Source of the DNA: a virus
Lineage: Duplodnaviria > Caudoviricetes
Length of the DNA: 43,158 nt
Direction: 5' to 3' (one strand)
IMG/VR virus record: IMGVR_UViG_3300011336_000447
Span: 1 to 43,158 of that record
Part shown: one piece after another, positions 4,506 through 38,067 of the stretch
Numbering within the stretch: the stretch's first letter is position 1
How the letters are laid out: each line of letters opens with the position of its first letter
Position numbers and translations under genes: made by a program
The notes under the pieces: model-generated
What the model saw: the letters and a program-made list of their open reading frames with translations, nothing else
Database searches by the model: none
Told to the model about the DNA's origin: nothing

Positions 4506-4729
4506 TTCCCTGCCTCATAAATTTCTGTTAATGTTACTGCGCGATTGCATTCACTGCAAAAGCAACAAAAATTACTACCTATTTTCCAAGTTCTATTGCC
4601 GCATGAGCCACATAAAAAAACCTTAATATCGTTATCATCGTTTGCGTTAACCCGCAAAGCACGTTGTGTTTGTTTCACCTTAACAACGGACTCATGAAAT
4701 ATACCATAATCGATATTGGTTTTCATCAT
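4502..4729 (-). CDS. Zinc-ribbon protein
   Basis: CGSC...CSEC; coupled on both sides. Confidence 0.55.
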   Translation of the reverse strand: MMKTNIDYGIFHESVVKVKQTQRALRVNANDDNDIKVFLCGSCGNRTWKIGSNFCCFCSECNRAVTLTEIYEAGK

Positions 4730-4899
4730 TTCTGCTTCGCTTTCTCATTAACAAATGCCAAGAACTCAATAATAGCATATAATTTGCGTATTATGCCATC
4801 ATCGTTGGGGGTGTTCGTACTTGCGGTAATTACCGACGCAATCGTTATGATTGATGTACCGACTGTAATAATGGTATCGAGATTTAGATATTCTAGCAT
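4726..4899 (-). CDS. Small membrane protein, holin-like, 57 aa, not in ORF track
   Basis: MLEYLNLDTIITVGTSIITIASVITASTNTPNDDGIIRKLYAIIEFLAFVNEKAKQK; AAGGA RBS; TM segment plus TPxDD motif. Confidence 0.7.
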   Translation of the reverse strand: MLEYLNLDTIITVGTSIITIASVITASTNTPNDDGIIRKLYAIIEFLAFVNEKAKQK

Positions 4900-4908
4900 G
4901 ATGTTTCC

Positions 4909-5949
4909 TTATGTTATTGACAGCAATGCATTCTTCCATACCGAAGCAAGTAAAGCATGCCCAGCTTGTGTTAAATGCACAGTATCCGTATAATAAGTTG
5001 TGTCGCTTACATTGCCAGTTGTTACATTAAATTGCGGTATATCGTCTTCAAAGTCAGCAATAACATCAATTCCAATACTTGCATAACTTGCCCTAACAAT
5101 AGTGTTAAATTCGCTTATCCTTGTATTTAGAGGCGTTCCGACTCCTCTTTTTATTGTAGTGCAGAAAATAATCTTTGCGTCTGGAAAATCAGCAGTTATC
5201 GCATTTAATCTTGTCGTTACTCTTGTCCATAAATTAGATGCTGTCACGGTAGCATCATAAGCCAAGTCATTCGTCCCTAGCCATATACTTATAATGTTAT
5301 TTGCCCCACCTCCATTTAATGGTAAAGTTTTTACTCTTTGGTTATACGCTAATGACAATCTAAGAGGGTATGTGTCTTGACTTTCACCTGTATCTACTGC
5401 GTTATCAAAGTTAGAACCACCTAGTGCTATATTCATAAGTTTATAATTTTTTGACACAAGCTCTCTATCGTCTGTGCCTGATATTTCTACTAAAGTTTCC
5501 CCACTAATTGAATTTATCGCCTGTGCAGCATAGATTAATTCTTTATTAGCACTTGGTAATCCTAAAGCGTCGGTTATACTATCCCCAATAAGAATTATTG
5601 TTTTAAATTTTGCAAGAGGCTGAAATTGTTCAAGCGTGCTTCCTAGGGCAAAACCAGTTGGGGCTGTTGATACAACACTTGCTAATTCAGAAGCTGTTAA
5701 ATAACTTGATATCGCACTGTAAAATACGTCTGGAACACGAATATAAGTGATTGAACCTGTAGCAACACCAATTTGTGCAAGGTATTGCGTATAATTTGCT
5801 GGTAAATTTAATTGAGTAGCGATATACCGCAAGCATAAAGTTTCTTTTGTCACTTCCGCAGTGTCACCATTATTTAAAATAGAAACACCACCATAAGCAC
5901 TTCTTAAATTTGTATCCGCAATAAAATATTTATATGTTTCGGTTGCCAT
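4909..5949 (-). CDS. SGNH/GDSL esterase, probable tail-associated protein
   Basis: Blocks IGDSIT, ALGG, LGTND and DTVH. Confidence 0.85.
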   Translation of the reverse strand: MATETYKYFIADTNLRSAYGGVSILNNGDTAEVTKETLCLRYIATQLNLPANYTQYLAQIGVATGSITYIRVPDVFYSAISSYLTASELASVVSTAPTGFALGSTLEQFQPLAKFKTIILIGDSITDALGLPSANKELIYAAQAINSISGETLVEISGTDDRELVSKNYKLMNIALGGSNFDNAVDTGESQDTYPLRLSLAYNQRVKTLPLNGGGANNIISIWLGTNDLAYDATVTASNLWTRVTTRLNAITADFPDAKIIFCTTIKRGVGTPLNTRISEFNTIVRASYASIGIDVIADFEDDIPQFNVTTGNVSDTTYYTDTVHLTQAGHALLASVWKNALLSIT

Positions 5950-28667: not shown

Positions 28668-30097
28668 TTATTTCCTCGTGATTTTTGTTTTTCTTGTCTT
28701 GCTCTCATTGTGCCGACTGCCCAGCCGTGCGGATTAGAATAGCCACGAGATACACCCAAAGCAATTAATTCTTGCAATGATTGTGCTTGTGCTTGTTCTT
28801 TCTTTTTTTGAAATTTTATCTGCGTCTGTATGTGTTCATAATGCTCAATGGATACTGATACAAGCTCCCCTGCAATAACAACTTGTTTGCGTTTTTCTGT
28901 AAATTCTATATCCCAGCCACAACGCTCACAAATACGTTCTTTGGTTAAAAAATGATGTTTACAATTATCGCACTGGGTGATTCGTTCGGTAATTTCTACT
29001 TCACGCTTGCGTTTTTTAACTCCATCAAGAGACCACTCACGGTCTTCACAAGGCAAGCCGTGAATTGCCACGTTACCCACAAAATCAAGAATAGTGCAAT
29101 GTGTTTTACCCTCGCACGCACGCAAGCCACGCCCCATTTTTTGTAGATAACTAACGATTGATTTTGTTTTTGTCATGTCGATAATTCCATTTACAACTGG
29201 TATATCTGTACCTTCTGAAATAACACTACATGATGTTAAGCCGTGTATTTCGCCACTGCCTAGGCTATCTATTGCTTTTTTGCGTGCGGCAGGAGTCATT
29301 TTACCGTCAATAGACATAAAATTATAACCTGCTTCACGGAATTTTTGTGCTGCAATCTCTGCCATTTCAACTGTTGGATAAAATCCTATTGTAGGCTGAT
29401 TGTGTAAATATTTACGATATTCTGCGACTTCGCACCCTACAACCGATTTAAGACGTTCTGCCATTTCTTTGGGGTCATAATCACCATTATTAGCAACCCT
29501 AACATCTAATAAATCCACTGCAAGAGGTTGAGAAAATATCTGATACGGCGATAAATAACCTTTCTTAATGAGTTCTTTCATTGATGCACCGTGCTTATCG
29601 CCACAAACCATATGAGAGAATATTTTATCCAATCCTGTACCGTCTGTACGTGTTGGGGTTGCTGACATACCTAAGATGCGAGCGTTAGGGAATCTTGAAA
29701 AAATATATTGCCACTGCGACGCAATAGAGTGATGCCCCTCGTCTGCTATAATTAAATCAAATGTTGGCAGGGGGGCATTGTTTTTAATCCGTGATACGAG
29801 TGTTTGCACTGATGCCACCATAGCAAGTTCATTACCCATTTTGACATTAGGAATAATTAATGAATGTTTAACGCCCATTGATAAATATGCCCGAGAAAAC
29901 TGGTCAAATATTTCTCTTCGATGCACTAAAGCAAGGACACGGCGGTTATTTTGTGTCATTTTATGCGTGATGTATGATGCGATTGCTGTTTTGCCACCGC
30001 CAGTGCATAGCTGAGCCATTACTGATTTGTGTTTTTGCTCGAAGGCTTCACGAATACCACCAACTAAAGACTCTTGATGTTCACGTAATATTATCAT
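28661..30097 (-). CDS. SF2 DExH helicase with C-terminal Zn finger
   Basis: TGGGKT, DEGHH, SATP, EGTDIP, QKMGRGLR and CDNC/CERC. Confidence 0.92.
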   Translation of the reverse strand: MIILREHQESLVGGIREAFEQKHKSVMAQLCTGGGKTAIASYITHKMTQNNRRVLALVHRREIFDQFSRAYLSMGVKHSLIIPNVKMGNELAMVASVQTLVSRIKNNAPLPTFDLIIADEGHHSIASQWQYIFSRFPNARILGMSATPTRTDGTGLDKIFSHMVCGDKHGASMKELIKKGYLSPYQIFSQPLAVDLLDVRVANNGDYDPKEMAERLKSVVGCEVAEYRKYLHNQPTIGFYPTVEMAEIAAQKFREAGYNFMSIDGKMTPAARKKAIDSLGSGEIHGLTSCSVISEGTDIPVVNGIIDMTKTKSIVSYLQKMGRGLRACEGKTHCTILDFVGNVAIHGLPCEDREWSLDGVKKRKREVEITERITQCDNCKHHFLTKERICERCGWDIEFTEKRKQVVIAGELVSVSIEHYEHIQTQIKFQKKKEQAQAQSLQELIALGVSRGYSNPHGWAVGTMRARQEKQKSRGNKW

Positions 30098-30282
30098 ACT
30101 TCCCCCTTATTTTTGTTAATAAAATCAATCATTGCGTTAAGTGTTTTTAAAGTTGGATTATCGCTCTTTTGTCTTAAAAAATCGTAAACTTGACGGTATG
30201 TAATGCCAACTTCTTTCGCCACAAGGCAGGGCGGGTATCTTTTTAATTTTTTTCTGATTAAATCTATATCTATTTTTTCCAT
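30094..30282 (-). CDS. Cro/XRE-like HTH regulator
   Basis: VAKEVGITYRQVYDF...NPTLKTL. Confidence 0.8.
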   Translation of the reverse strand: MEKIDIDLIRKKLKRYPPCLVAKEVGITYRQVYDFLRQKSDNPTLKTLNAMIDFINKNKGEV

Positions 30283-33311: not shown

Positions 33312-33539
33312 TTATCCTATTAAAATAGCATCAACTGGAGTATCATCCTCTTCAGGTTCATCATGATTACCATAATACCATGATGTATTTTTATTAAGGG
33401 CTATTTTTATTGCTGATATTTGTGATAAATCAACATCTGAATATCCACCTTCATATCCCCTTAAAATAAGTCTTATATCACCGTCAAATTCTTTCAGCTT
33501 CTCAATCAGTTCTCGCACTGTGGTTTTTGTTTCAGTCAT
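33312..33539 (-). CDS. Conserved phage hypothetical protein
   Basis: TVRELIEKLKEFD...GYEGG pattern. Confidence 0.65.
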   Translation of the reverse strand: MTETKTTVRELIEKLKEFDGDIRLILRGYEGGYSDVDLSQISAIKIALNKNTSWYYGNHDEPEEDDTPVDAILIG

Positions 33540-34048
33540 TATCTTACCTCTCTATTTTTGCTGGTTGCTTCTATTAATTCGTCCACAGTGTACATTGACA
33601 CGACAGAACGGTTATTATCACTTGGAATAGCAGAACGCCCTAACCGATAATAATAAGCCTCTACGTCTTTAAATTCTTGTGCTACTTCTGCGAACGCTTG
33701 GATAACATCGTAGCGTTGTGTAAACCAAAACATTTGCCAACCGTTTTTTTTGTAATTATTAATTACAAAATCGATTTCTTTTTTTAGTTCGCTATAATGC
33801 ACTTCTTGCATAAAATTATTTCTTACCAATGCTTTGCCTCCAGAACATTTACGGACTAAAATTTCTTTTAACCCATAATAGCCGTTTTCAATTTTACCTG
33901 AAAATAAATTGAAATTTCCTAGATTTTCTATTGTTAGATTTTCTATTACTTTGTAAATGTTATTTTCTTTATAAGCCATATTGTCATGATATATTATATC
34001 GCTAGAGTAATTTACGTTCTCTATTTTTATGATGTGTTTTTGCATCAT
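33539..34048 (-). CDS. Degenerate C-terminal portion of an ABC/AAA_21-type ATPase
   Basis: VHYSEL, QMFWFTQRYDVIQAF, YYRLGRS and C-terminal EVR parallel LHYS.L, QVF.TTHS.ECI.AF, Y.RL.R and EVR; no Walker A. Confidence 0.55.
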   Translation of the reverse strand: MMQKHIIKIENVNYSSDIIYHDNMAYKENNIYKVIENLTIENLGNFNLFSGKIENGYYGLKEILVRKCSGGKALVRNNFMQEVHYSELKKEIDFVINNYKKNGWQMFWFTQRYDVIQAFAEVAQEFKDVEAYYYRLGRSAIPSDNNRSVVSMYTVDELIEATSKNREVR

Positions 34049-34275
34049 TCCCCCCTTAAATCTATAACGTGATTATTGACAGCCCTATCGCTTTTTTCTT
34101 TAACGATAAAATGATATAATCCATGCAACGTATTGTAATCGGGCGTTTGTATTTTACCTGCCAATAAGCGAGATATAACAGCAGCATCAACACCTGATTT
34201 TTCAGATATATAAGTTTGCTTATAACCCCTCAATCCTGTTTTAATAAATTCAATTAATTGTTCTATTGTTAGCAA
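34045..34275 (-). CDS. XRE HTH regulator
   Basis: ISEKSGVDAAVISRLLAGKIQTPDYNTL. Confidence 0.8.
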   Translation of the reverse strand: MLTIEQLIEFIKTGLRGYKQTYISEKSGVDAAVISRLLAGKIQTPDYNTLHGLYHFIVKEKSDRAVNNHVIDLRGE

Positions 34276-36985: not shown

Positions 36986-37147
36986 TCATTCTCTATCCTT
37001 TTCAATTTCATTCACTGGTTCACCGCAAAAATAACTAGTCCAAATCCGTTTTCTGAATTCTGGGGTTAAATTATCAGGTAATTTACAACCACAATTACCC
37101 ACGCAATCAGGCGATGTACAGTAGGTTTTGTCAAAATTTATTGTCAT
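36986..37147 (-). CDS. Small Cys-rich protein, 53 aa
   Basis: MTINFDKTYCTSPDCVGNCGCK...FCGE; ATGA-coupled to the DUF262 gene. Confidence 0.6.
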   Translation of the reverse strand: MTINFDKTYCTSPDCVGNCGCKLPDNLTPEFRKRIWTSYFCGEPVNEIEKDRE

Positions 37148-37614
37148 GCTCTCTCCCCCTCCTTATGTGCTGTACCACTAAAATTCATTAGATTATAATA
37201 GTTTTTAAGATATTCTATGTCGTCACTTTGTGTGACATATTGAGCGAATGAAGACACATTAAAACGACCGTGTAAATCCTTAACTTCTGAATATAATTTA
37301 CCATATACAGAAAATTTATCGTTAATATATTCATTGATTGCATTGATGCGTTGCTGCCCATCAATTAAAATATTATCTAATTCTTTATTTTTAGAATTTT
37401 CATTAATCGTAAATGTGCCAATAGGTATGCCGACCCACAAAGACTCAATTAGTTTTATTTTTTGTTCTTGCGTCCACACTAAAGGGCGTTGAAAATAGGG
37501 TATTTTATAACCCAATATCGTATTTGGTAAATGTCCGTACTCTCTATTATTATGAAATAAAGATGACAACTGAACATTATAATGCTGTCCGAGATTAATT
37601 TTTGGTGGTATCAT
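37144..37614 (-). CDS. Stand-alone DUF262 (ParB/Srx-fold, GmrS/SspE N-domain-like) protein
   Basis: IPYFQRPLVW, LIESL..GIPIG and LIDGQQR. Confidence 0.88.
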   Translation of the reverse strand: MIPPKINLGQHYNVQLSSLFHNNREYGHLPNTILGYKIPYFQRPLVWTQEQKIKLIESLWVGIPIGTFTINENSKNKELDNILIDGQQRINAINEYINDKFSVYGKLYSEVKDLHGRFNVSSFAQYVTQSDDIEYLKNYYNLMNFSGTAHKEGERA

Positions 37615-37765
37615 TCTTATTCTCCAATTCATTTTTCAATGCGTACAACTCAATTTGTGTATGAATTAATTGTTGCCTTAGAAACGCTATATGCTGTTCT
37701 GCATTTTCCATAAACTTTGTTACCTTAGTAACGAATTTATCAAATTCACTGCCTAGTGGTGTCAT
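37595..37765 (-). CDS. Small coiled-coil protein, 56 aa
   Basis: GAGGG RBS; MTPLGSEFDKF... Confidence 0.5.
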   Translation of the reverse strand: MTPLGSEFDKFVTKVTKFMENAEQHIAFLRQQLIHTQIELYALKNELENKNDTTKN

Positions 37766-37946
37766 TTAACCCTCTCATTTCAATAATTGATATTTCATGT
37801 CCTAACGATGCCATAACTTCCTGCAACAATTCAAATCGTGGCGGTGGTACATAATTTAATTGAGACCAGCGTTTCACAGTTTCAATTTTAATGCCCATAC
37901 GATTAGCAATAAAAGTAGGGTGTTTTAAATAATAATTCCATTTCAT
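37746..37946 (-). CDS. Cro-like HTH regulator
   Basis: IANRMGIKIETVKRW...VPPPR; AAGGA RBS. Confidence 0.7.
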   Translation of the reverse strand: MKWNYYLKHPTFIANRMGIKIETVKRWSQLNYVPPPRFELLQEVMASLGHEISIIEMRGLNDTTRQ

Positions 37947-38067
37947 ATAAAATCCTTTCATAGCACGTTATAGCACGTTTAAAATAAAAAGTATATAAAA
38001 AATATATTTTTATTGCATTTTAAACTGATTCATGGTATTGGTGGGTTAATAAAATTGGAGAGAGTGA

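Follow-up and report, generated by a model that had tools for sequence, protein, structure and literature searches.

ABC ATPases coupled to TOPRIM-like effectors (PARIS, AbiL, Gabija, OLD and others) form a large class of phage-defence systems. In PARIS, the effector AriB docks via its N-terminal helices on the heads of the ATPase AriA, and inserts in AriA build the hexamer (PMC11464382); the trigger-pocket residues R212, R213, R345 and R346 are located in the stretch that separates Walker A K39 from Walker B E393, and the hydrolysis-dead E393Q variant no longer binds the trigger Ocr while AriB stays bound (PMC10802264). Payne et al. suggested that trigger specificity is placed in two inserts. 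AbiL of Lactococcus, a complete two-gene abortive infection system, consists of the ATPase AbiLi and the TOPRIM-like AbiLii (PMC13064643), and TOPRIM_OLD toxins are neutralized by AAA ATPases in toxicity assays (PMC10440598). PDC-M38, in which the ABC ATPase PDC-M38A is paired with the DUF3226 protein PDC-M38B, belongs to the PDC systems, which are predicted candidates (10.1101/2024.01.29.577857). On the phage side, orphan antitoxin-like genes are a proven counter-defence (PMC11825919), and in those directed at DarTG (AdfN, and the mimic Gp145 of ICP1) the phage retains only the protective half (PMC11825919, PMC13728456). The counter-defence described for PARIS is a resistant viral tRNA and not a protein decoy (PMC11464382, PMC13728456), and in the literature covered PARIS is overcome through such a tRNA or through escape from the trigger, with no decoy derived from its sensor; the available portion of a 2026 counter-defence review gives tRNA-based escape as the only counter to PARIS and Septu (PMC13728456). 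In our full-text literature search, which covered openly accessible papers, neither DUF3226 nor PDC-M38 was mentioned by name and no truncated copy of such an ATPase was described for a phage, and the available parts of PMC13064643, PMC12065111, PMC12881386 and PMC13700489 contain no such copy.

The DNA analysed here (the window) is a complete phage genome of 43,158 bp with direct terminal repeats at its ends, which encodes terminase, portal, capsid, primase, RecE/RecT-like and endolysin genes (PHROGs) and in which neither a tyrosine integrase nor a tRNA was found. Amid its replication and recombination genes, on the minus strand, lies the intact 169-codon frame that the first-pass annotation had quoted (33539..34048), which profiles, alignment and models identify as an internally deleted, catalytically degenerate derivative of a PDC-M38A/AbiLi-type ABC ATPase and which we call a mini ATPase. 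Upstream of it stands a Cro/CI-like helix-turn-helix (HTH) gene of 76 codons (34045..34275, minus strand), identified by profile searches with a clear PHROGs match (E 2.4e-7) and an HTH_3 match below the Pfam cut-off (E 0.001), and downstream a 75-codon ORF taken from the ORF list and profile searches, to which no function is assigned (33312..33539, minus strand). The stop of the HTH gene overlaps the start of the mini-ATPase gene (ATGA), in agreement with the proposed coupling to an XRE regulator, but this coupling is limited to related phages (L001) and is absent at L003, L107, L112, L114 and L121. The mini-ATPase stop in turn overlaps the start of the 75-codon ORF (TAATG), a gene similar to which sits two genes downstream in L001. 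This ORF is not DUF3226, and PF11536 (DUF3226) has no match anywhere in the complete genome, in keeping with the first-pass reading. Three short minus-strand genes of the window (30094-30282, 34045-34275 and 37746-37961) each head a leftward block opposite a rightward one; the one at 34045-34275 is HTH by profile and the other two are HTH-like by eye only. A promoter scan gave 12 sites against 7.9 +/- 3.1 expected, and an SSB search for the phage host pointed to mixed hosts. The window also carries a stand-alone GmrSD_N/DUF262 gene of 162 codons (37144-37632, minus strand; best PADLOC match Menshen NsnA, E 1.9e-19), which is present in G002 too and could be a second defence-protein fragment retained by the phage.

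Alignment to full-length relatives indicates what was lost. Residues ~5-64 of the mini correspond to the N-terminus of the ATPase and residues ~70-169 to the stretch from Walker B to the C-terminus, hence the protein is not the C-terminal half that the first-pass annotation took it for: the loss is internal. Against a parent profile of 381 positions built from 119 parents, the missing span covers positions ~45-279, that is ~235 residues or the middle 60%, including both inserts, the Q-loop strand and the signature motif. The same two-piece match (~1-55 plus ~273-381) was obtained for 32 of 33 minis, the exception being P0057, in which only the C-terminal piece matched. The N-terminal strands and the P-loop remnant occupy residues 34-57 (33878..33949), within which FNLFSGKIENGY aligns with parental VNLIVGKNNSGK; a degenerate P-loop (G51-Y57) is thus present, with the Walker A Lys changed to Tyr57, where Walker A had been called missing. 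A short linker at residues ~65-72 (33833..33856), the limits of which are approximate, stands in place of the ~235 parent residues and is followed by the degenerate Walker B/D-loop at residues 73-84 (33797..33832), which ends in an invariant His84 (23/23 members of the window clade). Residues 105-112 (33713..33736) form the H-loop strand, in which the parental His-Ser is Gln-Arg in 23/23 clade members, and residues 131-169 (33542..33658) form a conserved C-terminal module (YYYRLGRS ... EVR) that we regard as a candidate binding surface. All of these features lie on the minus strand.

The active-site replacements read earlier at the Walker B/D-loop and H-loop hold up in this alignment, whose motif identities were cross-checked against ABC transporter sequences. 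The Walker A Lys is present in 0/23 window-clade members (Tyr in 19, Gln in 3 and Leu in 1) versus 119/119 parents, the Walker B Glu in 3/23 versus 119/119 (the window protein has NN for DE), and the H-loop His in 0/23 (Gln in all) versus 119/119. The window mini is predicted from these residues neither to bind nor to hydrolyse ATP. Lacking the defining features of ABC ATPases (the Walker A GxxxxGK[S/T], the Walker B DE/D-loop, the H-loop His, the Q-loop strand and the signature motif) and an adjacent DUF3226/TOPRIM effector gene, it belongs neither to the ABC ATPases as an enzyme nor to PDC-M38 as a system.

Its homology to such ATPases is beyond chance. The best PADLOC match is PDC-M38A (PDLC04611; E 6.5e-13, spanning profile positions 293-383 only), followed by AbiLi (E 1.4e-5); both profiles are matched by 22/22 aligned clade members, with PDLC04611 the best profile for all 22. 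Pfam, NCBIfam, PHROGs and a PDB sequence search gave no match for the window protein. Structure searches agree with PADLOC on the AAA_15/AAA_21 origin proposed at first reading: each of the 10 ESM Atlas matches listed belongs to an AAA_15/AAA_21 cluster (TM 0.67-0.69 for nine), and the best 50 VIA matches are ABC-superfamily ATPase domains (Z 10.8-9.7, rmsd ~3, 122-139 residues aligned), with the ABC nucleotide-binding core fold recovered over residues ~3-169. The model built from an alignment including 24 full-length relatives has a pLDDT of 91.7, an alignment that favours the parent fold, and the model built from the 22 minis alone has a pLDDT of 72 and still finds ABC domains at the top of its list (best Z 9.1); in both models the match to ABC nucleotide-binding domains runs from the first strand through the end. 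Foldseek with a first, weaker model returned nothing at E 0.001. AriA is absent among the fold matches listed and gave no alignment with the C-terminal part of the mini, and AriA D401/E404 are placed at Ser86/Lys89 of the mini by residue counting only. Several short viral proteins resemble the mini in fold or features, namely BFVD A0A3G8F5P3, A0A8S5NJK7, A0A8S5N321, A0A289ZTZ1, A0A172JI18 and A0A4D6DXA8 and two viral ESM Atlas clusters of 166 and 160 residues (Atlas scores under 0.9); these BFVD and Atlas proteins (131-191 residues) may be additional collapsed ATPases or may come from split Rad50-like genes.

The mini is maintained by selection. Together with 22 homologues of 148-163 residues (45-60% identity, frames open) it forms a clade of 23 members, bearing out the expectation of same-length homologues in other phages, and dN/dS is 0.26 against L001 and 0.39 against L003. 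An ABC match and conserved short homologues, the sequence-level points whose absence (for the homologues, together with missing binding or rescue) the first-pass annotation had named as refuting it, are thus both in hand. The strongest selection in the gene falls on the P-loop segment (residues 34-57; pN 0.09-0.16, pS 0.90-0.96), and residues 58-104 evolve fast (dN/dS 0.49 and 1.03 against L001 and L003). Mean identity at the Walker B/D-loop is 0.26 within the clade versus 0.82 among parents, whereas it is 0.87 versus 0.58 for the H-loop strand and helix and 0.94 versus 0.50 for residues 131-140, C-terminal figures that are possibly inflated by word-based search and recombination; the helix that follows the D-loop belongs to the less conserved stretches of the clade (0.36). 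Constraint has shifted away from the active site and onto the C-terminal part. The clade retains the GRS loop and the terminal EVR of the parent subfamily and has fixed residues that the parents lack (F49, N55, Q111, R112, Y132 and Y133), of which Asn55, Gln111 and Arg112, present in 23/23 members, line the former nucleotide site. That the gene moves between phages follows from L003, another phage in which it has other neighbours and lacks an upstream HTH gene. An identical copy (L006:7001-7510) is present in a bacterial MAG, on a contig of 43,086 bp that is probably the same phage binned with the bacterium, and no DUF3226 was found in that MAG.

The closest full-length relatives are ATPases of 340-410 residues that end in RxGRS...EVR, namely PDC-M38A with PDC-M38B downstream. 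A DUF3226-type gene lies directly downstream in 69 of the 70 distinct full-length ATPases with enough downstream DNA, as judged with a partner profile built from 40 of the same 70-locus partners, and the partner's identity was checked with Pfam DUF3226 (6/6 tested) and PDC-M38B (3/3); the DUF3226 partnership first ascribed to the parent family is thereby confirmed. Directly upstream of parent pairs stand what we take to be an MnmA-like tRNA thiouridylase (L053, L055 and L057) and, presumably, a large BREX PglX-like methyltransferase (L028, L040, L059 and L083). Over its first 50 positions the partner has a weak match to AriB 17-67 (E 0.002), the region that sits on AriA (PMC11464382), and from this weak match and its fold the DUF3226 protein is presumably toxic. 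By analogy with PARIS and with the neutralized TOPRIM_OLD toxins (PMC10440598), we infer that the parent ATPase acts as the antitoxin of the pair. Two plasmid loci (L004:1603-3447 and L005:857-3381) have an ATPase gene that is either split or disrupted by IS1, together with a DUF3226 gene annotated as intact. Since DUF3226 is retained there although its ATPase is broken, the effector may lack toxicity when no ATPase accompanies it, as reported for AriB.

The reduction is not confined to the window clade. Our viral scans yielded 26 distinct contigs, of which 14 carry a full-length ATPase, 10 a mini (140-186 residues) and two an intermediate form. The partner gene is present in 14/14 contigs with the full-length ATPase and in 0/10 mini-carrying contigs, as in the complete window phage; nine of the mini records were searched whole and L109 as a locus (5,952 of 6,186 bases), the mini-carrying records are mostly incomplete (16-80%; complete only G000 and G009), and near-copies reduce the ten contigs to about five phage lineages. 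The minis of L107, L114 and L121 have kept all three motifs (Walker A, Walker B and H-loop), and the Walker B Glu is gone in L109/L110 (where it is Gly), L112/L113, P0031 and P0067. Since other minis retain these motifs, the deletion is the feature that minis have in common and catalytic loss is secondary; the first-pass annotation had the lost residues right in the window protein, but catalytic death does not define the family. The low-GC phages L114 and L121 carry motif-intact minis in their early regions, as a tandem pair 55% identical to each other (L114:3796-4356 and 4583-5140) and as one gene close behind an ssb-like gene (L121:1229-1720), and no DUF3226 was found in either record. At L107:4998-5429 a mini of 143 residues adjoins a peptidoglycan-binding/M15 peptidase gene amid the baseplate genes of a P2-like phage, likewise at L109 and L110 (dN/dS 0.08-0.13 among the three), and minis of 140 residues lie within the head-tail gene block of a high-GC phage (L112:4854-5276, and L113).

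Intermediate deletions are found in an orphan ATPase of 294 residues (L134:4001-4885) and in one of 238 residues (L106:4989-5705, also L132), behind which lies a gene (L106:5698-6180) whose first 40 residues are DUF3226-like and whose remainder is unrelated, so that sizes run from 380 through 294, 238 and 185 to 143 residues. In a cellular control of 301 genomes from one phylum, 17/17 matched genes were full length (336-476-residue frames) at a strict E-value that very degenerate minis could escape. In a tree of 71 rows (6 of the 23 clade members, seven other minis and the 58 parents left after thinning at 72% identity), P0057, P0031 and P0067 join the window clade (91/91), and L107, L112 and L114 sit with other parents behind a branch of 93/97. 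Repeated origin of minis is suggested by this tree; a single clade of all minis is not rejected by the AU test (p-AU 0.121), although the best tree splits them. Minis were sought without success in a first metagenome scan (20 pattern matches, 0 relatives), in viral scans with P0012, P0067 and P0031 as queries (0 relatives) and in a cultured-phage collection with four queries. The one Streptococcus prophage match inspected was rejected as a mini, since it lies in a 573-aa gene.

Set beside the described systems, the mini shares with PDC-M38 its best profile match, the GRS loop and the terminal EVR, but it lacks ~235 internal residues, has its catalytic residues replaced, stands without a partner gene and is encoded by a phage. 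It is a partner-less core, whereas AbiL, whose AbiLi profile is matched by all 22 aligned clade members and whose ATPase plus TOPRIM layout is that of its parent, is a complete system. With AriA, whose head holds a TOPRIM effector and does so even in the trigger-blind E393Q variant, it shares the ABC ATPase head, but the inserts behind the hexamer and trigger pocket are retained in AriA. Like the orphan antitoxins of DarTG, it is a phage-encoded homologue of a presumed protective half, without the toxin and maintained by selection; AdfN, however, works as an active enzyme and undoes the modification made by the toxin, whereas the mini appears to be a sensor-antitoxin cut to its non-sensing core.

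Our leading reading, with a probability of roughly 0.45, is that the mini acts as a counter-defence decoy, a trigger-blind antitoxin that would hold the DUF3226 TOPRIM-like effector of the host inactive. By analogy with PARIS, the deleted inserts would be the trigger sensor and the oligomer scaffold and the retained head the effector dock; the head of the mini would bind the DUF3226 effector from the predicted two-gene defence system of the host, and a head unable to sense or hydrolyse would never let the effector go. Its position in a leftward transcript headed by the Cro-like gene suggests that it would be produced early. Some observations speak against a decoy: the PARIS effector docks between two ATPase heads and the mini lacks the interface-closing signature motif, and the helix with the contacts equivalent to AriA D401/E404 (by residue counting) is variable in the clade (0.36). 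A 1:1 complex prediction of mini residues 28-169 with the DUF3226 protein of L022 scored 0.00 twice and, its controls not being folded, weighs neither for nor against binding. The broader proposition, that unrelated phages repeatedly captured the sensor ATPases of ATPase-TOPRIM pairs and excised their trigger-sensing inserts, giving a general and undescribed class of trigger-blind decoys of 140-190 residues against PARIS- and AbiL-like immunity, with catalytic decay following the deletion, is a tentative one that falls somewhat short of even odds.

An unlikely but serious competitor keeps the same target and changes the binding partner. The mini would pair head-to-head with the host's full-length ATPase, presenting a P-loop face without signature motif or sensor, and the mixed complex could not sense, hydrolyse or mature the effector. 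In ABC dimers the nucleotide site faces the partner head, and such a poison subunit would suit a P-loop segment that is under the strongest selection despite its lost Lys, the fixed Asn55, Gln111 and Arg112 at that site, and the minis in which Walker A/B and the H-loop are kept. AriB binds across two heads, the mini lacks the signature motif, and AriB activation requires AriA (PMC13728456, PMC11464382); the plasmid DUF3226 behind a broken ATPase fits a poison subunit at least as well as a decoy. The most conserved part of the mini, however, is the C-terminal module beyond the H-loop, which is not known to face a second head, and a poison subunit must outcompete a pre-assembled host complex. 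Counter-defence against the ATPase-DUF3226 system in either form, decoy or poison subunit, is on balance probable.

No more likely than the poison subunit is a co-opted fold, in which the target of the collapsed ATPase would be a nucleotide or some unrelated protein of host or phage, with no link to the DUF3226 system. Identity between the window clade and its closest parents is only ~30%, with the clade-fixed residues listed above, and other phages carry short ABC-like folds; yet the subfamily-specific GRS loop and terminal EVR are retained, the same deletion recurs in minis near different parent subfamilies, and no partner was found wherever the deletion is present. That the mini serves phage-side defence or exclusion, by activating or re-wiring the host effector against competing phages or by pairing with a phage gene such as DUF262, seems quite improbable. 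The 14 viral contigs with full ATPase-DUF3226 pairs, the stand-alone DUF262 gene of the window and G002, and the L107-type minis amid structural genes of a P2-like phage are in its favour, but DUF262 occurs in only one of the five other mini-carrying records searched, the window phage has no tyrosine integrase and the mini has no attached effector domain. The broken ATPase copies on plasmids and the intermediate deletions in phages (294 and 238 residues) could recall a decaying relic or an assembly artefact, a notion largely refuted by 22 open-frame homologues, dN/dS well below 1, a confident fold and the identical copy in a second assembly, and one to which we give hardly any credence.

We therefore regard the minis as a real and conserved phage family, apparently undescribed, of sensor-less defence-ATPase cores, with well-supported anatomy and a putative function. 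More minis are likely hidden among hypothetical genes, because Pfam, NCBIfam and PHROGs miss degenerate members, and the family offers a simple search recipe, namely to look in phage genomes for short defence ATPases that stand without a partner. A core-only ATPase of natural origin would reveal which parts of these proteins hold the effector and which sense the trigger, and the mini would also indirectly indicate that the PDC-M38/DUF3226 pair is a real defence system.
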